From a phage, in the NCBI GenBank assembly GCA_027262695.1, contig GCA_027262695.1_4722.1: a DNA stretch of 64,000 bases; one strand, written 5' to 3'. Numbering within the stretch: position 1 is the stretch's first letter; every line of letters starts with the position of its first letter. The position numbers were made by a program, and so were the translations under genes. The notes below the pieces were generated by a model that did not search any database, was not told where the DNA came from, and saw only the letters and a list, made by a program, of their open reading frames with translations. Below, in pieces: positions 33,521 to 43,639 of this stretch.

Positions 33521-33859
33521 TTAGAACCAGAGTTCTTTCATGAAGTAGGCTTCCATATCGTAAATAAGCCACTCATCTGGGATTTCTAAAGGATCGTCTT
33601 CGGTTAAGGTGAGCATGTGCAGGGCGAACGCACGCTTAATATCTTCCAACAGCTTATCATCACCGTAACCTTCGGGTAGTTTACGGTCAACCAGCTGGGT
33701 TTGTTTATAGACATCGCGGAACGCTTCAGGATTATGTTTATCCATCGGGAATTGTTCAGCAGCCTGAACCATCGAAAGCGTCCAGCTTACAACATTGTAA
33801 CGCTCACCGTTAATTTCACTGAACTTATCATCGATTAAACAGATTTGTTGTATATTCAT
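33521..33859 (-). CDS. hypothetical protein
   Basis: 112-aa ORF. Confidence 0.45.
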   Translation of the reverse strand: MNIQQICLIDDKFSEINGERYNVVSWTLSMVQAAEQFPMDKHNPEAFRDVYKQTQLVDRKLPEGYGDDKLLEDIKRAFALHMLTLTEDDPLEIPDEWLIYDMEAYFMKELWF

Positions 33860-34797: not shown

Positions 34798-37059
34798 TTA
34801 CAATTCGAAATCTTCATCGATAACGCGTTGGGTTAGCACCTTGTCGCTGAAGAACTCCACCTTACGTTGATGGTATTTCCGATGTGCTTCAATCGACGTA
34901 CACACCAGATACCAGAACGTGGGTGTCATACCCTCGAACTTCCCTTTCAGCTGACGTAGTCGACCTAACACCTGAATGTTACCAGTTCTCGACCCCATCG
35001 CTAACGTCATGAACGTCATCACCAAGTCAGGAAGATCGATTCCTGTACCAGCCGATTTCACCGTTGTCACACTGATATCATTATCCAGTAACACCATGAA
35101 ATCTTCTTCAGCGGTATAAGGACCTATCTCCAACTCAGGGATACGTTCACTTAAGTAATGCGATAACGACTTGCACATATCAACGGTTGCACAATACACC
35201 AACATCTTCATGCCTTCCTGATATTGGTTCATGAAACCTTTGATAATAACCGTATAGATAAAGTTGAAATAGGCGAGTTTGAGTTGCTTATTCTTCATGA
35301 TAGACTGTTCGAATACCGTGTGAGAATAAGAACCTCCAAAGCCTTTGTATCGGACTTTATCCGTACTGCGTAGTCGATACGTCACCGCATTTACCGCGAT
35401 GTATTTCTTGTATTCACATTTCGCATAACGTGCTTCTTTCGGATACATCAAATACAGCATCCGCTCGATGAACGGATCGTCAGACACCGCCGTTGCCGAC
35501 AGATAAATGATTTCCGGAATATTCGCGTAACACTTCACTTTGAACAAGAAATGCAGAGCTTCGTGACATTCATCGTGGATTAACAATCCAATGCCTGTTT
35601 TCTCCCAGAACTCGACTGGATGGAAAACATAAGGTGCGACACAGTTGTTCTTTTCATAATCGGTTATATAACGCTGAAACATGTTCAGTGAGAATAACGC
35701 AATTTTGAAATCCAACTCACCTTGTTCTACCAGCGTCTGAAATTCCAACATGCTGTAACGAGGAATGTCGGGATGCGGTGGGTCAGACTGGGCTGTACCA
35801 CGTATCTCGATAACATCACCTGGTTCCATACCGAAGAAACTTAGCAGTGAGCTACGCCATCCAGGCATGTACCTCGGTGACAGAATGATGCCCGTCCGTA
35901 CACCACGTCGGAAGGTGATCTCCTGCGACATTGCGGTGTTGTGCGTGACGATATGGTCTTTAATAACATAAAGGCTTTCGTCGTTGTCCACCGTGATGCA
36001 ACGTGCCTTCGCTTTCACCGTCGGCACGATGCCGCCAATCGCTAAACCAGGAAGCGTGTTAACGGGAAGATCATCTGGAATCTCAATGCCGTCAGGAATA
36101 AGCTTAAGCAAATCGGAATGGTAAATTAATGTCTCCATCGTGTAACTATTGATGGGGCATTTATACGCGATTCCCCCTAACCGATAAGCCAACTCCCAGA
36201 CCTCGGTCATTATCTGCGAATCGGTGGTTCTGACCGCAAGGTGAGCCCACCCTTCTTCAACACGCAGTACGCAACGATCTTTGATGAGTTCTCTGAAACG
36301 ATCAAGACCCACGAGTTCTTTCGGTTCGTAAAGTCGGATTCTTACCGGACGAGATCGTGACGATCTGTCATTAAGACGTTCCATGATTTCACTCGTGCTG
36401 AGCACCTTGTCAGGATCCGTGCATTGCCAGAGATGATCACCACACGCTTCAACCATTCGTCCATCTTCAAAGAAGACAGCGTAAAGCTGAATATCGTCAT
36501 GATCAAAGATAGCAGTTACGTTCGTCGGTAAACCATCCGCGCCGATGACCTCATCACCCACCTGGAGCTCACCAATCGGCTTCCAACCGCTTGGAACCTT
36601 AACGGGTGTATGGAGAGCCAATGCTTTCCCAGACCCCGTGCCTGCGGTGTTTAGGCTCATTCTGAAAGGGGTATCCTTACCCCCATCCATGTACTCCAAC
36701 CATTCTTGCTGATCTTCACGCCACGGAAACTTCCAGTTCTTCACAAACTCCACTTCCTTACCTGGAACCGGATCGTGGTAAACGATTTCCAACCACTCCT
36801 TTCGAATTCCTCGAGAAAAGATAAAATCCAAAAACGACTTCAGCTGTTCACGAAGTAAGTAGACCTCGCTATAATCGCTTCTTGCTGCGGCGTAGGTGTT
36901 GATGGTATCGGTGACCATTCTCCGTGTACGAGGGTCGCGTCGTTTCCGTAGATGCAAACAACGGTCTCGAAGGTAATGGCCAATCAAATGGGCAAATCGA
37001 AGTCCGTATCCGCTCAGCTTCATGCCATGCGAGAAGACGTCGATACGAGCTAACTTCAT
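34798..37059 (-). CDS. SF2 DExH helicase interrupted by an intein in motif I
   Basis: Motif I TAGTGSGK|...|T, motif II LIHDECHEA, motif VI TVKSAGTGIDLPDL; 229-aa insert between K145 and T375. Confidence 0.75.
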   Translation of the reverse strand: MKLARIDVFSHGMKLSGYGLRFAHLIGHYLRDRCLHLRKRRDPRTRRMVTDTINTYAAARSDYSEVYLLREQLKSFLDFIFSRGIRKEWLEIVYHDPVPGKEVEFVKNWKFPWREDQQEWLEYMDGGKDTPFRMSLNTAGTGSGKALALHTPVKVPSGWKPIGELQVGDEVIGADGLPTNVTAIFDHDDIQLYAVFFEDGRMVEACGDHLWQCTDPDKVLSTSEIMERLNDRSSRSRPVRIRLYEPKELVGLDRFRELIKDRCVLRVEEGWAHLAVRTTDSQIMTEVWELAYRLGGIAYKCPINSYTMETLIYHSDLLKLIPDGIEIPDDLPVNTLPGLAIGGIVPTVKAKARCITVDNDESLYVIKDHIVTHNTAMSQEITFRRGVRTGIILSPRYMPGWRSSLLSFFGMEPGDVIEIRGTAQSDPPHPDIPRYSMLEFQTLVEQGELDFKIALFSLNMFQRYITDYEKNNCVAPYVFHPVEFWEKTGIGLLIHDECHEALHFLFKVKCYANIPEIIYLSATAVSDDPFIERMLYLMYPKEARYAKCEYKKYIAVNAVTYRLRSTDKVRYKGFGGSYSHTVFEQSIMKNKQLKLAYFNFIYTVIIKGFMNQYQEGMKMLVYCATVDMCKSLSHYLSERIPELEIGPYTAEEDFMVLLDNDISVTTVKSAGTGIDLPDLVMTFMTLAMGSRTGNIQVLGRLRQLKGKFEGMTPTFWYLVCTSIEAHRKYHQRKVEFFSDKVLTQRVIDEDFEL
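35938..36624 (-). mobile_element. mini-intein (class-3-like: Ala1, W-C-T motif)
   Basis: Starts ALALHTPVKV...VGDEVIGADG, block B GRMVEACGDHLW (W at B:12), block F RCITVDN, ends IVTHN followed by Thr; removal restores GSGKT. Confidence 0.7.
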
Positions 37060-39095
37060 AACGTGATTACATCCTCCGGTTTAGGTTCTTTACGCGGTAG
37101 AAGCATGTAGTCGATCGGATGATCTGGCTTCATGGTTGGGATATAACTGTTCGGGTTTTGGAACGCATCCAGTTGCTCTTGGTGAGCGAACTTCATACTC
37201 AAGGAGCGCATGTTCATGTTCTTCTTGAAGGTACTGAAATAACGAGTCGTTCCCTGTTTCGGCATGCGGTAATCTTTCGTGTGTGGTGAACGAATCATAC
37301 TCGCGTAGAGAATAACGTCCAGATGCGATAGATTCATTCGTAAACGTTGCGCACACAGACGATGCCAATAATACAGTACGTTGGCTACTTCTTCTGGTGT
37401 CGCTTCATCTTCCGAAAGGAATCCTGCACTGAACGAACCTTTCCCGAATTTGAATTCACGTTCGATTTCTTTTGCGTATTCCATCATGTTTTTATGGATG
37501 AGTGGCATCTGGAATAGCGTCCGTGAATTGTCCCAATGTTTCAAGTCGAAGATCACAATCCCGTCTGCTGTTACTTCCCAGCTATGGCGTTTGAGATAAC
37601 GGATAAACGCTTTGCTTGGTACAACAGGACGTCCACAGAAATCGAAATTGACTTTGAGTTTACGGTAGCTCTCATCTTTCCTGTCGTAAATCTCCATATC
37701 GCAAAGCGTCATGTTGAACAGACGTTGCGGGATAAGCGAACTGATCTCTTCCGCTTCAGCTACATCGTACAACATGTTCGCCAGACCGAGTTTCATCTTA
37801 ATCAGCACGTGTTTGCCTTTCAGCTCACGGGCTAATTTGATGTCGTTCATGTTCTGGCTGTAACGAAGGATATGTTGATATTCCGGCGGGATTGGTGACG
37901 TAGACACGGTGGACGAACCATCGTGATGTTTGGTCGAAAGAATGTTCTGGGTAACCTGTTGTGAACCTGTACGTGCTGAGCAGTCTCCGATGTTGTCGGT
38001 CAATGCAAAGTTATGGCTTAATTCACCATAGCACGTTGTACAGACACCAGCAGGATCAGAATGATGACAGTAACAAACGGAACGCATGTTCACAATGGTA
38101 CCGATCAATTCTTTCATGTGAGGCTGTATCGACAACAGCGAACCATCTTCACGTAAGATGAATCGACCGTGGAAACCTTTAAGATCGGTTTCATCACGTA
38201 TCGGCATCGGAATGGTTTCTCTGCTTCCACAGTCACCAGGGTGCAGACGCTGTACAACCGCCGTTGCGATTTGCAGCTCACGTCCGAAATATTCTGACTT
38301 CTTAATCTGCTCCTTGTTGAACAACAATGATTTTGCCGCAGAGCGACTTTCTTTCAAACTGTCTGGAAGCGAGATCAAGCCTGCTGCATACGACCGCATC
38401 ACTGGGTCACGGAAGATCTCCGAGTTGATATCGGTTAAGAAGCCACGCATCCCAATACACTGCAATACCTGTCCGATCGATACGTGTTCGGTTCTTACCG
38501 CACGTGCGATAGGGTTGGCATGCAATGTTTTATCGGTACTTAAAACTTTTGTTAGTTTCTTGTATGCGCTCTCAATACCTTCGCGGGTGGGTTCCGCTTC
38601 AGCGATGATTTTCTTCACTTCGGGATGTACGGTAATCTGATAAAAATCATCCGCACAGATGGTCGTTACGTATTCCTCCAACGCATACGTAAAGAAGTTA
38701 TAAACGTGGTTAAACATATCGAACAACGCTTTCCAGAGAACCTCACGATTCTCTTGCGGATACGCATACATGCATTGACGATAGGCTGCGCTTTGTAATG
38801 CAACGGAAGAACCTGCCGTAAACTTGCGTTTATCCACCAGGTTCTCTTTCGTTAACGGTGTCTCAGGATACATGCGATGTAAAGACCAATGCATGTAGCT
38901 AAAGAAAATGCGTCGCGCACGCAATTCATGAACACCATCGTCCATCTCGATATACACACGGTCATTAGGCTGTGCCCACTCGAACACCTCATCAACCGGC
39001 CAATGCATAAGCTCTCGCGCCCGTACACGGCGTTTCGTGGTGATCGTCTGTACTGTATTCATTATTTTTACTTTCCGATTAAGTGGTTTTATCAT
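37056..39095 (-). CDS. RNA polymerase beta-prime-like subunit, C-terminal part
   Basis: SVCYCHHSDPAGVCTTCYG...IGDCSARTGSQQVTQNILSTKHHDG aligns with beta-prime zinc site and trigger loop (CDTDFGVCAHCYG...SIGEPGTQLTMRTFHIGG). Confidence 0.55.
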   Translation of the reverse strand: MIKPLNRKVKIMNTVQTITTKRRVRARELMHWPVDEVFEWAQPNDRVYIEMDDGVHELRARRIFFSYMHWSLHRMYPETPLTKENLVDKRKFTAGSSVALQSAAYRQCMYAYPQENREVLWKALFDMFNHVYNFFTYALEEYVTTICADDFYQITVHPEVKKIIAEAEPTREGIESAYKKLTKVLSTDKTLHANPIARAVRTEHVSIGQVLQCIGMRGFLTDINSEIFRDPVMRSYAAGLISLPDSLKESRSAAKSLLFNKEQIKKSEYFGRELQIATAVVQRLHPGDCGSRETIPMPIRDETDLKGFHGRFILREDGSLLSIQPHMKELIGTIVNMRSVCYCHHSDPAGVCTTCYGELSHNFALTDNIGDCSARTGSQQVTQNILSTKHHDGSSTVSTSPIPPEYQHILRYSQNMNDIKLARELKGKHVLIKMKLGLANMLYDVAEAEEISSLIPQRLFNMTLCDMEIYDRKDESYRKLKVNFDFCGRPVVPSKAFIRYLKRHSWEVTADGIVIFDLKHWDNSRTLFQMPLIHKNMMEYAKEIEREFKFGKGSFSAGFLSEDEATPEEVANVLYYWHRLCAQRLRMNLSHLDVILYASMIRSPHTKDYRMPKQGTTRYFSTFKKNMNMRSLSMKFAHQEQLDAFQNPNSYIPTMKPDHPIDYMLLPRKEPKPEDVITL

Positions 39096-39170
39096 ACAGT
39101 GTATTCATTCCGTTGGAATTTACTCCGGGAGTCCCTTCCCTTAGGTTATATAGGTGTTAATATATCTCGG

Positions 39171-39656
39171 TTATCCTGCTTTCTTCTGAAGGCTATAAGG
39201 ATCCATCGCATCGGAGCGGTCGGCAACGATGGTAAGAATGAAGCCTTTTATCTGTCTCACTTCGGTAACCCGGAGTCCCCTATCGTTACGATAAACATTT
39301 TCTTCGCCGACCAGTTTTGGTCGAATAACATAAACCCCATCAACGAACGGAAACGTTGAATACGGATAAATACCAATACGAATAATATTCGGATGATCAC
39401 CTCGAGGGTCACGTCCAAACACATCAACTCTACCGTAAATCGTGCCGTCCGCACCTTCCACTTCAATAAGGTCGTTGCGAATATCCTGAAACAGTTGTTC
39501 TAAGGTCTCTGCGGGATATGTATAAGCGACGCCTAATGCAACATCCTCAATGGTCTTAACGCTAAATCCGTTAAGCCAAATAATCCGATCATCTGTCCAT
39601 GTTTCTTCATACGCTGTTAATCCGTCGCCGTATATGTTGGCGTGTGCTATCTCCAT
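39171..39656 (-). CDS. hypothetical protein
   Basis: 161-aa ORF. Confidence 0.45.
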   Translation of the reverse strand: MEIAHANIYGDGLTAYEETWTDDRIIWLNGFSVKTIEDVALGVAYTYPAETLEQLFQDIRNDLIEVEGADGTIYGRVDVFGRDPRGDHPNIIRIGIYPYSTFPFVDGVYVIRPKLVGEENVYRNDRGLRVTEVRQIKGFILTIVADRSDAMDPYSLQKKAG

Positions 39657-39760
39657 AATCTCATTTCCTCTTCTCTGTTAGGATAAATGACATGCTGGAT
39701 AACGTTGCCTTTGCATATATTGCTTTATTTCCGTCAGAAATAACGGAAAATAAAAACAAC

Positions 39761-39798
39761 GGCATAAACCCCTCCCACCACCACATGGGAGAGGGAGG
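39761..39798 (-). terminator. GC hairpin followed by GTTTATGCCG box
   Basis: Minus strand CCCTCCC...GGGAGGGG TTTATGCCGTTG. Confidence 0.55.
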
Positions 39799-39805
39799 GT
39801 GTATG

Positions 39806-40168
39806 TTATTCTACATTATCTTCTACGGCTTCGGATTCATCCGCTTCTGCGAAGCTTTCCTGAACCGCAGTGGTATCCCAGTTCGCTGCGTAATCAGCCA
39901 TGGCTTCGCGCAGCGCTTCTTCACCCGCATCACCAGCCAGGTCAAGTACAACCAACCCTTGTGCGACGTTCTGCGCTACGGTATCGATAACCGTTGCATC
40001 CTCTTCAAAGCTACGTACCGGTTCAATGGTACCAACATCAACAGCGTAGTTCGTGGTTGCGGTAAGGACAGCAACCTGTAATGCGTTGCTGTCTTCGTCA
40101 TGAAGTGCTGCTTCAATACCGATTGGACGGGCCAGTTCTTGCAGTGTCAATTTACGAATTAAGTTCAT
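39806..40168 (-). CDS. highly acidic small protein
   Basis: 120 aa, many D/E versus few K/R; shares GLVVLDLAGDAGEEAL-type motif with 40661..41098. Confidence 0.5.
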   Translation of the reverse strand: MNLIRKLTLQELARPIGIEAALHDEDSNALQVAVLTATTNYAVDVGTIEPVRSFEEDATVIDTVAQNVAQGLVVLDLAGDAGEEALREAMADYAANWDTTAVQESFAEADESEAVEDNVE

Positions 40169-40191
40169 TATGTCTTTTCCTCAGGTGAATG

Positions 40192-40542
40192 TTAGCAATC
40201 GTTTAAAACTTTTTCGATACGATGGTTGACAAGCTCATTGAACGACTCTTCTGCTTGTTCGATAATTTCATCAACGTCAATATCTAATCGTTGGGGTTGG
40301 ATGACGTGCTCTTTCATGGTTTCCAGCCAGTATTCGGCTTTAATCATGACGTTAACAACATGTTCAACCTGACTGCGTAGGTCGATAATCTGGCAATCAG
40401 GATTATTAATATCGATGACGTGTCCGTGGTGGTTGATAAACCCAAGCTTATTCGATGCTTTTACGGCATCGCGAGTAAGTTCTTGCAGGATTAACGCATT
40501 TACGTAATTCACTGCGACGGAACGATTTTCTTTATCACTCAT
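40192..40542 (-). CDS. hypothetical protein
   Basis: Start at ATG 40542 after AAAGAGGA (ORF track start 40620 abuts hairpin). Confidence 0.4.
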   Translation of the reverse strand: MSDKENRSVAVNYVNALILQELTRDAVKASNKLGFINHHGHVIDINNPDCQIIDLRSQVEHVVNVMIKAEYWLETMKEHVIQPQRLDIDVDEIIEQAEESFNELVNHRIEKVLNDC

Positions 40543-40610
40543 ACCAGGGATCCTCTTTAAGTGTTCACATTCTAGTGTTAAGCAGTTAAAATAAACCGTT
40601 CCTTTAATCA

Positions 40611-40649
40611 GCATAAACATCCTCCTCCCACCACACGGGCAGGAGGAGG
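40611..40649 (-). terminator. GC hairpin followed by GTTTATGCTG
   Basis: CCTCCTCCC...GGGAGGAGG then TGTTTATGC. Confidence 0.5.
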
Positions 40650-40660
40650 CGTAATATGCA

Positions 40661-41098
40661 TCAGAAAGGAGTACGGTTCTTATATTCGAATAGTGTCTGG
40701 AGGACGCATCGCGTTAACGCGTTTTGTAATTCGATACGTCCTTGTTCCCCTAACAGATCCAACACCATCATCCCTTTTGCTGTTTTCTCTGCCACTTCTT
40801 CACAAATCCGTAAATTGTACACATCATCGTCGTCAAGCTCCTTACGACGGTCAGAGCTGAAACGCATCAGCTCACCTTGACTATCACGAACATCAGCGAA
40901 TGCTTCATAGGCTGCATCAATGTTCGCAGAACGCGTCAAACCCTCCGCTTCGCGCCATTCTCGGTATGTACCATCAAGCGTTTGTTCCTCGCCTGAGGTT
41001 GTTGATTCACTGTTGGTGGTTGGGCGAATTAAATGGGGTGTTATCATCGCTATTACGCTATCGTAATGCTCCATCGTATACCTCGTTAGCTTTCGCAA
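40661..41098 (-). CDS. hypothetical acidic protein (paralog-like to 39806..40168)
   Basis: GMMVLDLLGEQGRIEL motif shared with 39806..40168. Confidence 0.45.
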   Translation of the reverse strand: MRKLTRYTMEHYDSVIAMITPHLIRPTTNSESTTSGEEQTLDGTYREWREAEGLTRSANIDAAYEAFADVRDSQGELMRFSSDRRKELDDDDVYNLRICEEVAEKTAKGMMVLDLLGEQGRIELQNALTRCVLQTLFEYKNRTPF

Positions 41099-43419
41099 TC
41101 ATCAGCATCGATGATCTGACCACCAGCAACGTTCAACTGATGATACAGAATCCTCAACGCACGGTTACCCCCAATGGGATACTTCTCGAAGTTGGTCGCA
41201 ATCGGAATCGCAGAGGGTTTGTCGGTTGCATAGATGCTTTCCGTGATGCTATCCACCTGTTTCGGGTTGTTCGCGTAATCCATGAATACGCTTGCGAACC
41301 ATCCACCGGCAAAGGCGGTGACTTCGCGATGCTCGGATTCACCACAATAACGTGTCGGTTGCTCTTTACCCGGCGAACTGTACTTATCACTGTTGCTGAG
41401 TTTCGACGGCAAACCGTGTGCTTGCAGTTTAGGAATACCCACCGCAGACCAATCGTTCGCTGTCTTCTCCAACATCATGATGTATGTATCACCAATCGCA
41501 ATATCGTTCTTGGTGGTTCGCCATTGGCCAGAACGTCCACGATAGCGTACTGGACCTTTCTTCAACGGGAACTCTCGGATTAGGTTCTCCATACGTTCCG
41601 AACCTGCTGCGATACTGTCTGTCGGAATATAGACTTCCGTACCGTGGCGTTGTACGTAACGGAGATGATCCCATTTATCTTCGTCTGTGATACAGTGCTT
41701 CTCAACAACCTGTTCCACAAACTCAGGACTAACAATATAGTAGTAACGCATCAATGTGTTCCATGCGGTTTCCAGATCGCCTGCATCCATTACTGGTTTC
41801 AGTTCACGCATAATCTGATCACCAACACCGTTGATATAAGGTGCGTTAACACGGCTTAAACTCATCCTTTTAATTACCGTGCTGTCGTCGAACATAAAGT
41901 CCGCGACATTCCCCCATTGGTCTACGGGCATCTCGTCATCTTCCATGATATCCGTTACGACGAATTTATCACCTGCCATACCGGTAAATTTAAATCCGAT
42001 ACCCGGGACTACATCGTAGGTATACGTGATAGTCACACGCCAGTCGTCAAGATTCTCCTTACGGTAATCACGGGTTGGCAACACATGACGTAGCTGACCG
42101 TTCGGATTGCGAATATCGATACCGTGCTCAGCATCAGCGAGGTTCAACCACCACATCACCGTCTGATGATGTCTGATGGGTGTACCAGCACGTTCACGTT
42201 CGTATTTACGCACCGCATCCTGAATACGGGTATACAGCAGACCGATGGCGTTCTCATATTTCAGGAATTGACGATACGGCGGACGCATCTTCTCTTCCAT
42301 CATAATCGCACGCTCACGGGCTTGACGTCCAGAACGACGATGGCGATCACTAACCACATCGATATCCGTCACACGCGCATTCGGTTCTGCGTAGGTAAGG
42401 TCATCGTAAACGTAGTCGACACGCTGCAGGTTGCAGGTCATCATGTCGACGACGCTCAGAATCGGATCGATTTCACGGGTTGCTGCTAACAGACCATCTT
42501 TACGAATACGTTCACCGTTCTCCGGGATTGCCTGATAGACCTCATCGTCGCCGTAGAGATTAATCGGATACCTCGACTTACCTGACGTGATCGTCCGTTT
42601 CTCGATACCGGTACTGGTGAAGTGTTTCAGTACGCCACGACGGGCAACACCCCCATCCTCAATACATTGATAGAAACTCCCAAAACACACCTTGCAATCA
42701 CGTCCGTAGCCCCACTCACGCGTTTCTTGATTGATCGCCGGGCTTTCCATCAAACGAGAGTATCGAGGTACGATCTGGCCTCGACGAAGGGAATGGAACA
42801 AATTGGTGGGTCGAAAACGGAAACCGTACTGCTGATGCATGATGTGATGCTCGGGCACTTCAAGCAAGCGCAGCTCATGGCGGTTACCATCTTCTTGGTT
42901 TTCATACAGCACGTAATGCATCGTGTTTGTCTTGATGCTATTCGCGGTATGCCCAGGTTGAAAACGTGGGATGATATCTATGACGCGAGATTCAACGGGG
43001 AATTCTACCGACCATGTATTCTGACCATACTGGTATTCAATCCCCGTCGTTAATCGGGACGGCTTCGCATCTTTGATAACCAACGCTTGGCTAAGATGTC
43101 CACCAAACATCGCAGCGCGCTGTGCTGAGTTATAATGCAATAGCCCGTTAAGTCCAGTCCCTACACCCGTATACTCCTGTTTAATGGGAATGATTTTACC
43201 TTCAGCGATTGCCTGCTTCACAGATTCATAAAGAGGTTTTTCTTTATAATGCATAGGACTTCCTATTATCGAATTGAGGTACGTCATGTCTAATACGCCC
43301 CTGAACGACTTCCTTAAAACAAACCCAGAAGACCTCATCCACAACCTTGATTTCAGGAACGTTGTTGAGATGCATCTGGAATATTTCAAAAATGCCGGTT
43401 TGGTTTCTACGATAGACAT
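41086..43419 (-). CDS. RNA polymerase beta-like subunit, C-terminal part
   Basis: GMAGDKFVVTDIMEDDEMPVDQWGN...RMSLSRV aligns with beta GRHGNKGV...EDMP...NPLGVPSRMN; GDTYIMMLEK ~ GYMYMLKL; RYCGESEHREVTAFAGGW ~ QRFGEMEVWALEAYGA. Confidence 0.7.
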   Translation of the reverse strand: MSIVETKPAFLKYSRCISTTFLKSRLWMRSSGFVLRKSFRGVLDMTYLNSIIGSPMHYKEKPLYESVKQAIAEGKIIPIKQEYTGVGTGLNGLLHYNSAQRAAMFGGHLSQALVIKDAKPSRLTTGIEYQYGQNTWSVEFPVESRVIDIIPRFQPGHTANSIKTNTMHYVLYENQEDGNRHELRLLEVPEHHIMHQQYGFRFRPTNLFHSLRRGQIVPRYSRLMESPAINQETREWGYGRDCKVCFGSFYQCIEDGGVARRGVLKHFTSTGIEKRTITSGKSRYPINLYGDDEVYQAIPENGERIRKDGLLAATREIDPILSVVDMMTCNLQRVDYVYDDLTYAEPNARVTDIDVVSDRHRRSGRQARERAIMMEEKMRPPYRQFLKYENAIGLLYTRIQDAVRKYERERAGTPIRHHQTVMWWLNLADAEHGIDIRNPNGQLRHVLPTRDYRKENLDDWRVTITYTYDVVPGIGFKFTGMAGDKFVVTDIMEDDEMPVDQWGNVADFMFDDSTVIKRMSLSRVNAPYINGVGDQIMRELKPVMDAGDLETAWNTLMRYYYIVSPEFVEQVVEKHCITDEDKWDHLRYVQRHGTEVYIPTDSIAAGSERMENLIREFPLKKGPVRYRGRSGQWRTTKNDIAIGDTYIMMLEKTANDWSAVGIPKLQAHGLPSKLSNSDKYSSPGKEQPTRYCGESEHREVTAFAGGWFASVFMDYANNPKQVDSITESIYATDKPSAIPIATNFEKYPIGGNRALRILYHQLNVAGGQIIDADDCES

Positions 43420-43639
43420 ACCACCCGAACGCGCCTACGAATTCGATGGTAACTTTTATGGATTATGTCGGGTTATGCTTGGCGAAGGCAGTGAACCTAT
43501 GCACTGGGTTACCCTAAGAATCAACGGTTATCGTGATCCTACGGAATACACCGCCGATGTCCTAACGATGAAGATTGTCGATTCAAGCGCCATCAACACG
43601 TTAAAACAGCAATATCGCACAATCCACTACAGCGCTTAA
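43286..43639 (+). CDS. hypothetical protein
   Basis: Plus-strand ORF with GAGG RBS, followed by plus-oriented hairpin. Confidence 0.45.
   Translation: MSNTPLNDFLKTNPEDLIHNLDFRNVVEMHLEYFKNAGLVSTIDIPPERAYEFDGNFYGLCRVMLGEGSEPMHWVTLRINGYRDPTEYTADVLTMKIVDSSAINTLKQQYRTIHYSA

Follow-up and report, generated by a model that had tools for sequence, protein, structure and literature searches.

Two small neighbouring genes of a nucleus-forming jumbo phage, here termed ORF A and ORF B, are in our preferred reading early accessory genes, and the product of A would act as a nucleic-acid mimic or decoy. We put the probability of this reading at roughly one in three.

By its sequence, the window (the whole 64,000-nucleotide stretch of DNA that was analysed) belongs to a Goslar-like nucleus-forming jumbo phage (chimallivirus) of enterobacteria. 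The region is 85% identical to Goslar at the nucleotide level and has the same gene order, with ORFs A and B orthologous to Goslar gp168 (YP_009820853.1, Goslar_00168 / HOV27_gp168) and gp170 (YP_009820855.1), both annotated as hypothetical proteins. The genes of the locus are as follows.

41086..43254, minus strand: gene for the beta-like subunit of the non-virion RNA polymerase (nvRNAP), corresponding to Goslar gp171 and homologous to phiKZ gp71-73; borders the insert upstream
40661..41074, minus strand: ORF B, 137 aa, ortholog of Goslar gp170
40192..40542, minus strand: ORF M, 116 aa, with its ATG at 40542, ortholog of Goslar gp169; between B and A
39806..40168, minus strand: ORF A, 120 aa, ortholog of Goslar gp168
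39171..39656, minus strand: ORF U, 161 aa, ortholog of Goslar gp166; final gene of the insert
37056..39062, minus strand: gene for the beta'-like subunit of the nvRNAP, corresponding to Goslar gp165 and homologous to phiKZ gp74; borders the insert downstream

ORFs A and B lie inside a lineage-specific insert of ~2 kb that splits the beta/beta' gene pair of the nvRNAP. The gap between these two genes is 5-30 bp in RAY, Xoo-sp14 and phiKZ, where neither the A nor the B gene is present at the locus, and at most ~150 bp in a dozen further chimalliviruses, against ~2.1 kb in Goslar. A single distant relative, the contig L008 (RNA polymerase beta 65% identical), has B and A side by side in unchanged order, an adjacency known from only two lineages; gp169 (M), gp167 and gp166 are missing from L008, and M does not stand between its B and A.

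The first-pass annotation had described the A product as strongly acidic, and the computed values bear this out. It contains 11 Asp and 15 Glu (26 acidic residues, 22% of the protein) against 1 Lys and 4 Arg (5 basic residues), giving a net charge of -21 and a pI of 4.05. No other ORF product of the window is as acidic: its charge per residue is -0.175, and that of the runner-up -0.108. Its ortholog likewise ranks first in acidity in the Goslar genome, among 416 ORFs with a length of 70 aa or more. The gene is real, and its sequence is under strong constraint. The A protein is 90% identical to Goslar gp168 overall and 99% identical over aa 1-100, where the two differ by the single substitution N28D; dN/dS against Goslar-like relatives is 0.06 for the whole gene and ~0.01 for aa 1-100, the latter with dN of 0-0.018 at dS of 0.6-0.9, which resembles the RNA polymerase gene. 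Three versions of A all have a net charge of -21, even where identity falls to 51-56%. We found no internal repeat in A. The remaining residues form a distinct segment:

39809..39868, minus strand: variable acidic C-terminal tail of A, aa 101-120, net -8

The tail varies in sequence among the window, Goslar and L008 versions and maintains a net charge of -7 to -8 in all three; on these comparisons, what is conserved in it is charge rather than sequence. Published Goslar mass spectrometry, as far as the peptides listed go, includes both internal and C-terminal peptides of gp168, and detection of the C-terminal DGSEEDCAEEDSIE shows that the protein keeps its tail. An AlphaFold2 model of A has a mean pLDDT of 39.3, too low for its charge surface to be read.

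ORF B had been annotated in the first pass as 40661..41098, a 145-aa reading that begins at a TTG. Translation most likely begins instead at the ATG at 41074, with a GAGG 7 nt before it, and the resulting protein matches its database homologs (136-139 aa) in length; the TTG at 41098 falls within the 3' end of the upstream RNA polymerase gene, and the ATG stands 11 bp past the beta gene. With this start B has a net charge of -11, a pI of 4.6 and 16 Lys and Arg residues. The idea of a pair of acidic proteins therefore needs to be divided: A is exceptional at net -21, whereas B is only moderately acidic. B occurs in two recombining allele types that are ~55% identical to each other, and Goslar has the other type, so that the window B and Goslar gp170 share 56% identity. 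Another genome, L016, combines the window type of A with the other B allele, and we see no association across the genomes between the type of A tail and that of B allele.

One segment is common to A and B, as the first-pass annotation had noticed.

39890..40000, minus strand: shared module in A, aa 57-93, DATVIDTVAQNVAQGLVVLDLAGDAGEEALREAMADY, from the hhalign columns A57-93 against B87-123 and the segment alignment
40706..40816, minus strand: shared module in B, aa 87-123, NLRICEEVAEKTAKGMMVLDLLGEQGRIELQNALTRC, from hhalign; among the best-conserved parts of B

BLASTP aligns A60-90 with B98-128 (145-aa numbering) at 12/31 identities and 21/31 positives, with a pairwise E of 6e-6. The Smith-Waterman score of A against B is 64, compared with 29.1 +/- 5.2 for shuffled sequences (z ~6.7), and none of 2000 shuffles scored as high. 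Among 722 six-frame ORFs of the window, A and B are each other's best non-self match (E 0.003), and the pattern [LIVM]3-D-[LIVM]-x-G-x-x-G is found in the window in these two ORFs only. The motif was at first written VLDL-G-x-G; it is indeed common to both proteins, but its spacing is VLDL-x-G-x-x-G, within a module consensus of V-A-x2-[VT]-[AV]-x-G-h-h-h-L-x-h-x-G-[DE]-x-G for which similarity is moderately supported. When 3351 ORFs from two genomes were searched with family HMMs, the B family found A (E 1.5e-4) and the A family found B (E 0.0085), each as best non-self match. Neither the module HMM nor the family HMMs found a third copy or paralog in the Goslar genome, and we found no similarity between A and B beyond the module. 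In a structure model of B (pLDDT 63.3, all-helical; fold comparison gave no significant match) the module, at pLDDT ~70, runs from the last part of one helix through a Gly turn (G-x-x-G) into a second helix.

A possible objection is that two unrelated orphan neighbours have come to resemble each other in a short motif (helix or strand, Gly-rich turn, helix) by chance or convergence. The similarity spans just 31-37 residues, and its hhalign probability was 32% at first. Moreover, A matches unrelated alpha/beta enzymes similarly weakly (carbamoyltransferase, E 0.0016; RraA family, E 0.02; dihydrodipicolinate synthase, E 0.038), and the AF2 secondary structure of the segment is unlike in the A and B models, although the A model is unreliable. 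However, the best matches are reciprocal in two genomes, the shuffles never reach the observed score, and the signal is strengthened by diverged family members: with distant members added, the hhalign probability rises to 67% (E 5.4e-5). The segment is also better conserved than aa 21-86 of B (68% identity between the allele types, against 45%), and B is next to A in the distant relative too. We consider chance or convergence distinctly unlikely, and A and B are probably distant paralogs with one module of ~37 residues in common; the homology is limited to those residues, at a probability of 67% and not >90%. Taken with the allele comparison, the alignments mark B as a dimorphic, fast-evolving, paralog-like partner of A.

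Beyond this pairing the two proteins have few relatives. No match at E <= 1 was found for A, M, B or U in Pfam, PHROG or PADLOC, NCBIfam gave noise only, and a PDB sequence search gave no relevant match at E <= 10. For A, these libraries and an exhaustive phmmer search revealed no homology to any enzyme or known family. The NCBIfam hits of A to carbamoyltransferase and RraA were more than 100 bits under their cutoffs and were taken as noise; the RraA model TIGR01935, for instance, scored 14.7 bits against a cutoff of 123.8 (E 0.02), with no support from Pfam or PDB. By sequence or profile in Pfam, PHROG, PADLOC, NCBIfam and PDB, A does not belong to the known DNA-mimic families (Ocr, ArdA, Arn, Ugi, Gam and others), the Pfam result covering these families so far as its library contains them. 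Searches of 50,697 phage records by tblastn matched A and B in Goslar only; phmmer with A against 1.84 billion representative proteins returned just 2 clusters, and a B profile matched only Goslar-like proteins. Altogether, tblastn, word-indexed, profile and phmmer searches and locus scans of IMG/VR and metagenomes found remote homologs only in Goslar-like phages and one distant contig.

The timing of expression comes from published Goslar RNA-seq under chimallin knockdown. In the portion of those data drawn on here, gp168-170 change by a log2FC of +0.8 to +1.1 (gp168, +0.84 to +1.12), like the nvRNAP and chimallin genes, and the virion genes gp7, 22, 23, 41, 58, 60, 61, 88, 208 and 209 by -3 to -7. 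Both gp168 and gp170 are accordingly classed there as early, that is, transcribed independently of the phage nucleus. The position of the genes also suits another explanation, in which A and/or B are lineage-specific transcription accessory factors (modulators of the nvRNAP, or inhibitors of the virion or host polymerase) kept in the operon for co-expression. The genes lie between those of both nvRNAP subunits, with B almost adjoining beta, and their read density in Goslar (RNA-seq reads divided by gene length) is close to that of the nvRNAP genes (gp168 ~1.6, gp170 ~1.4 and gp171 ~1.5 reads/nt). Acidic polymerase inhibitors exist, T7 Gp2 being one. However, A and B are missing from all other chimalliviruses examined, where the polymerase genes abut, and therefore are not part of the conserved polymerase enzyme. 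Neither A nor B shows similarity to sigma factors, phiKZ gp68 or polymerase-binding families, and in the published virion data gp168 is abundant where the nvRNAP subunits are essentially absent. We regard a transcription role as quite improbable.

That abundance raises a more serious alternative. In the copy estimates consulted for CsCl-purified Goslar virions, gp168 is present at ~219 (146-344) copies per virion-equivalent, gp169 at ~92 and gp170 at ~2.8. The ~80-fold difference between gp168 and gp170 means that they are not stoichiometric partners in the virion fraction. The nvRNAP subunits, neighbours of gp168 in the same early class, are at 0-0.6 copies, and the early-block products as a group (gp165, gp171 and gp175 of the nvRNAP, the helicase gp164, gp174, gp170 and gp166) at ~0-3. 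A preprint (10.64898/2026.04.21.720040) counts gp168, in the sections available, among the abundant virion-associated proteins without a predicted function, and lists it as unmodelled, outside the 28 modelled proteins. Thus A, together with M/gp169, could be a packaged internal head protein or an ejected protein working in the capsid or the early infection vesicle, and the C-terminal peptide indicates that it would be there with its tail intact. It might, for example, serve as a counter-ion or spacer, help ejection, or be injected as an effector like T4 IPI*; this alternative overlaps our preferred reading if the injected protein is a decoy.

Several observations weigh against packaging. First, gp168 is transcribed as an early gene (log2FC ~+0.9), in contrast to the virion proteins checked. 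Second, non-virion proteins occur in that preparation as contaminants, in comparable amounts (PhuZ ~171, chimallin ~126 and ChmC ~78 copies per virion-equivalent). Third, the GFP packaging and injection tests given in the accessible part of 10.64898/2026.04.21.720040 cover gp60, 61, 208 and 209 only. Fourth, the Pfam search finds neither PF12699 nor DUF7941 in A. Fifth, a protein of net charge -21 would be an odd cargo for a DNA-filled capsid. We hold packaging to be possible, though less likely than not.

The contaminants suggest yet another origin for the gp168 in these preparations, namely that A binds a large non-virion assembly (fragments of the phage-nucleus shell, or PhuZ filaments) and co-sediments with it unpackaged. 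The Goslar authors do report, in the text available, that nucleus fragments and PhuZ filaments were captured in the virion preparation, and the early-class proteins chimallin, ChmC and PhuZ appear there at 78-171 copies. Yet gp168 exceeds chimallin itself in estimated copies (219 against 126), and A is not a core chimallivirus gene; we find this explanation very improbable.

We return to the mimic or decoy reading. DNA or nucleic-acid mimicry by A is plausible, judging from sequence features and their conservation. Compatible with it, for A only, are the extreme acidity, the charge of -21 kept at ~55% identity, the early, nucleus-independent transcription of the Goslar ortholog (in the published data consulted), the site in a lineage-specific accessory insert and the lack of detectable homology to an enzyme or known family. 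Points that lend it no support are that B is not strongly acidic, that no Pfam family or solved structure is matched, and that the ~220 copies of gp168 per virion-equivalent hint at other roles it might have. It should also be considered that nucleus-forming phages already shield their DNA, and therefore have a less obvious need of a classical anti-restriction DNA mimic.

The mechanism we propose is as follows. A would consist of a folded core of ~100 residues and a disordered acidic tail, its total charge fixed at -21. The module that it shares with B, modelled in B as helix/turn/helix, may be a common interaction or oligomerisation element. As a presumably abundant polyanionic binding partner, A would, from early in infection, occupy a basic surface through which a protein of the host or the phage binds nucleic acid, and possibly already travels with the virion; the variable two-thirds of B may supply changing specificity, in some interplay with A.

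T7 Ocr, T4 Arn and PBS2 Ugi are phage DNA-mimic proteins that are small, early and of very low pI. A resembles them in size, early expression, pI and Asp plus Glu content (~22%). It differs in having no sequence or profile similarity to a Pfam family or solved structure, and also in its setting, a phage whose DNA is protected by a vesicle and a proteinaceous nucleus. We know of no virion co-purification of Ocr, Arn or Ugi. T4 IPI* is an internal protein that is packaged and injected and inhibits a host nuclease. A is like it in being small and present at hundreds of copies per virion in the preparation, and could likewise be delivered with the DNA and act at once; unlike IPI*, it belongs to the early class and not that of head genes, shows no homology, and is only putatively packaged. 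The acidic patches of phiKZ Dip (gp37) inhibit the RNA-binding sites of host RNase E. A shares with Dip the character of an early jumbo-phage accessory protein, and would likewise block a nucleic-acid-binding site through acidic surfaces; none of our searches found homology between them. The window phage differs from Goslar in its B allele type and in the tail of A. The portions of the two Goslar papers available do not describe the module common to A and B, the locus as an insert, the pattern of selection or the dimorphism of B.

Those papers, so far as their accessible text goes, call it an open question what nucleus-forming phages bring in with them or produce ahead of the protective nucleus. 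A is a well-defined candidate for an early-acting effector, being the most acidic protein, constrained like RNA polymerase, early, and abundant in virion preparations. The position in the insert, the paralog-like neighbour with its two alleles and the conservation of charge rather than tail sequence make A easier to prioritise. Should A prove to be simply a structural component or a contaminant, the finding is ordinary. At the other extreme, and in our view unlikely, the gp168-like proteins would constitute a new effector family, polyanionic mimics of nucleic acid that are made from the vesicle stage and also borne by the particle (~200 copies) and that, before the nucleus forms, neutralise a DNA- or RNA-binding factor of the host, with the dimorphic gp170, which has the module in common with them, as a fast-evolving specificity partner.

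Two hairpins are found in the insert.

40621..40649, minus strand: GC-rich hairpin CCTCCTCC...GGAGGAGG then ATGTTTATGC, directly 3' of B
39769..39799, minus strand: GC-rich hairpin CCCTCCC...GGGAGGGG then TTTATGCCG, directly 3' of A

The hairpin and TTATGC elements around M and A were considered as modules of a terminator and a late 'TATG' promoter, a reading that would have suited a virion protein. It was dropped because the Goslar RNA-seq places gp168-170 in the early class and because the hairpins are located at the 3' ends of genes, convergent gene pairs included. The recombination tract detected against L016 ends at the hairpin 3' of B.

Positions 39000-43500 match Escherichia phage vB_EcoM_Goslar, a nucleus-forming jumbo phage (Chimalliviridae, genus Goslarvirus), over the full length of the region at 85.1% nucleotide identity. 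In gene order, all on the minus strand, the genes and their Goslar orthologs are:

41086-43254, minus: beta-like RNA polymerase subunit (gp171)
40661-41074, minus: B, 137 aa (gp170)
40192-40542, minus: M (gp169)
39806-40168, minus: A, 120 aa (gp168)
between A and U, minus: ORF of ~34 aa (gp167)
39171-39656, minus: U (gp166)
37056-39062, minus: beta'-like RNA polymerase subunit (gp165)
34798-37059, minus: helicase (gp164)

A and B are two real genes whose orthologs are annotated as hypothetical proteins, and gp168 was previously flagged as abundant; new here are the A-B relationship, the insert in which they lie, their contrast in selection and the conservation of charge. B most likely starts at ATG 41074 rather than at TTG 41098, because GAGG lies 7 nt upstream of that ATG, B homologs are 136-139 aa long, and the TTG falls within an overlap with the 3' end of the upstream polymerase gene. 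A plus-strand ORF of 129 aa (39692-40081) overlaps A and is longer, so that a simple longest-ORF gene caller would choose it; conservation and published peptides identify minus-strand A as the real gene.

The first-pass annotation described A and B as an acidic pair sharing a VLDL-G-x-G motif, possibly DNA mimics. The acidity holds for A (26 acidic versus 5 basic residues, net charge -21, computed pI 4.05) but not for B, whose charge is ordinary (net -11 over 137 aa). At -0.175 charge per residue, A exceeds every other ORF of the window in acidity (the runner-up has -0.108), as its ortholog does among the 416 Goslar ORFs of at least 70 aa. This extreme acidity is conserved: the window and Goslar versions and that of L008, a 3.9 kb metagenomic contig, all have a net charge of exactly -21, and the 20-residue C-terminal tail of A varies freely in sequence with its net charge held at -7 to -8. 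In charge-hydropathy space A plots on the side of folded proteins. The DNA-mimic idea can apply only to A, and the evidence speaks neither for nor against it.

The shared segment is genuine, with 12 of 31 residues identical (pairwise E 6e-6) and a Smith-Waterman score of 64, where 2000 shuffles gave 29.1 ± 5.2. Among the 722 six-frame ORFs of the window, A and B are reciprocal best non-self matches (E 0.003), and the motif pattern is confined to these two among the window ORFs. L008, whose polymerase beta is 65% identical to that of the window, carries a distant relative of both A (P0028, 51-56% identity) and B (32%), and the module is kept in every version, of A (VAQNVAQGLVVLDLAGDAGEEAL, VARDVVSGIVILHLAGEAGEDAV) as of B (VAEKTAKGMMVLDLLGEQGRIEL, VATKTARGLMLLELFGEQGRTEL, VALKTARGLIVLEHFGETGKIEL). 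Including distant members raised the hhalign A-B probability from 32% to 67% (E 5.4e-5, 37 columns). In a set of 3351 ORFs from the window and the complete Goslar genome, the B-family HMM found A as its top non-self match (E 1.5e-4), and the A-family HMM likewise found B (E 0.0085). One module is common to both proteins; no A-B similarity was found outside it and no internal repeat within A, and a module-only HMM matched nothing in the Goslar genome beyond A and B. These sequence comparisons lend moderate support to distant paralogy of A and B, the probable reading, with one module in common; set against the shuffle and reciprocal-match results, a chance or convergent motif between unrelated orphans, similar in the module only, is unlikely.

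Compared with six Goslar-like genomes, residues 1-100 of A have dN 0.000-0.018 and dS 0.60-0.89 (omega about 0.01); this strong constraint on A resembles that on the polymerase gene (dN 0.004, dS 0.8). B evolves in the opposite way: it is dimorphic, with two allele types about 55% identical and omega about 0.13 within a type, and the module is among its best-conserved parts (68% identity versus 45% for residues 21-86). The allele types are uncoupled from neighbor genes: on the related contig L016 (JACXXQ010000003.1), A and U match the window at 100% identity and M at 99%, yet B is the other allele. L016 and the window are 97% identical across the 12 kb compared (most 100-bp windows at least 97%), with a divergent tract from ~43200 to ~40608 whose end coincides with the hairpin downstream of B; nucleotide identity is 81-96% from inside the polymerase beta gene and 48-71% through B. 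The tract looks like a recent recombinational replacement that brought in the other B allele.

The gp171 and gp165 homologs are 5-30 bp apart in RAY, Xoo-sp14 and phiKZ, and by tblastn coordinates the two subunits lie within ~150 bp in about a dozen more chimalliviruses and ~2.1 kb apart in Goslar. Given this adjacency elsewhere, the five small genes are a lineage-specific insert. A, B, M and U are orphans, with tblastn against 50,697 phage records matching only Goslar; an exhaustive search of 1.84 billion representative proteins found two clusters for A, and B profile matches were limited to Goslar-like proteins. The L008 insert reads 63-aa ORF, B, hairpin, A, then an unrelated ORF; since it keeps B and A while gp169, gp167 and gp166 are all missing, B-then-A is the conserved core of the insert, in two lineages only. 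In EL-like phages (phage EL, HHBS47_1) the subunit matches lie ~1.2 kb wider apart than expected, which could reflect an independent insertion at the same site or a diverged beta' N-terminus. Near-identical A copies (P0001, P0012, P0013, P0015, P0020) occur on ~240 kb contigs of isolate assemblies deposited as Shigella sonnei, Shigella flexneri, E. coli O157 and Salmonella Enteritidis; clinical or food isolates are therefore accompanied by Goslar-like genomes, through either a carrier state or contamination.

Published Goslar RNA-seq compares control with chimallin-knockdown cells at 30 min (bioRxiv 10.1101/2023.09.20.558163, Supplementary Table 2). In that table gp168 has log2FC +0.90, +1.12 and +0.84, and gp169, gp170, the nvRNAP genes gp165 and gp171 and chimallin gp246 behave alike, unlike structural genes gp7, 22, 23, 41, 58, 60, 61, 88, 208 and 209 (-3 to -7), which places A, M and B in a nucleus-independent, early class. 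From its counts we computed by hand (reads divided by gene length) a gp168-170 density of about 1.4-1.6 reads per nt, similar to the polymerase genes.

A preprint on the Goslar virion, based on cryo-EM and mass spectrometry (10.64898/2026.04.21.720040), names ten abundant unmodelled virion-associated proteins that have no predicted function, gp168 among them. Its Table S4 gives, per virion-equivalent, ~219 copies of gp168 (146-344), ~92 of gp169, ~2.8 of gp170 and ~1 of gp166; the preprint has nvRNAP gp165, gp171 and gp175 at 0-0.6, gp174 at ~1.6 and helicase gp164 at ~0.4. By these counts gp168 is specifically enriched over its operon neighbors, and its packaging is putative. Non-virion PhuZ (~171), chimallin (~126) and ChmC (~78) are in the same preparation, and the authors report nucleus fragments and PhuZ filaments co-purifying with virions. 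The gp168 peptides detected reach the true C-terminus, which shows that the protein keeps its tail.

Our best reading, at a probability of roughly 0.35, is that A would be an abundant early polyanionic binding partner, standing in for nucleic acid, as mimic or decoy, at a basic nucleic-acid-binding protein from host or phage, and may also travel with the particle; B, as a variable relative, would employ the same interaction module. We infer this mechanism, and the early transcription and virion co-purification come from the published ortholog data. The main rival, partly overlapping, holds that A is truly packaged, as an internal or an ejected protein; the copy number fits this, against it the co-purified non-virion proteins reach similar levels, and we regard it as only slightly less probable than the best reading. 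That A and/or B is a transcription accessory factor ranks as unlikely: for it, the genes share position and expression with the polymerase; against it, gp168 far outnumbers the polymerase in the preparation. Slightly less likely again is A as a partner of the shell or PhuZ cytoskeleton, components found alongside it there. Protein-family and solved-structure libraries gave no credible match. For A, a shallow alignment yielded an AF2 model too poor to use (pLDDT 39.3); for B, the model (63.3) is all-helical, with the module running from the last part of helix 83-108 through a turn at G109 and along helix 110-132. Should A act as a mimic or decoy, its family would be a new one of known kind.

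A second small acidic ORF, the gp162 ortholog (33521-33859, minus, 112 aa, net -12, pI 4.4), is also early class (log2FC +0.3 to +0.5; 10.1101/2023.09.20.558163) with ~127 copies per virion-equivalent (10.64898/2026.04.21.720040); small acidic early proteins may co-purify with virions as a group, or label-free quantification may over-estimate them. The gp172 ortholog (43286-43639, plus) lies antisense within the early polymerase block; it is modelled as an inner baseplate protein in 6 copies (10.64898/2026.04.21.720040) and its RNA-seq behavior is that of the surrounding early genes (10.1101/2023.09.20.558163), possibly through reads without strand resolution.

GC-rich hairpins (CCTCCC-loop-GGGAGG) occur at about 11 distinct sites in the window, e.g. 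1219, 19162, 27859, 33500/33474, 39798, 40649, 43646, 54440 and 60714/60685; on the transcribed strand, most have (G)TTTATGC(C)G (conserved tail TTATGCCG) after them. They lie at gene 3' ends, including between convergent genes, two bracket the M-A pair, and they are probably phage terminators.

The helicase ORF, which had no Pfam match over its whole length, contains an in-frame 229-aa insertion (35938-36624, minus) splitting the SF2 Walker A motif (GTGSGK / ALALHT...DHIVTHN / TAMSQ); Goslar gp164 lacks it and is nearly identical in the flanks. The insertion resembles an intein in that it sits in the P-loop and ends in His-Asn followed by Thr, with an unusual Ala1 at its start.
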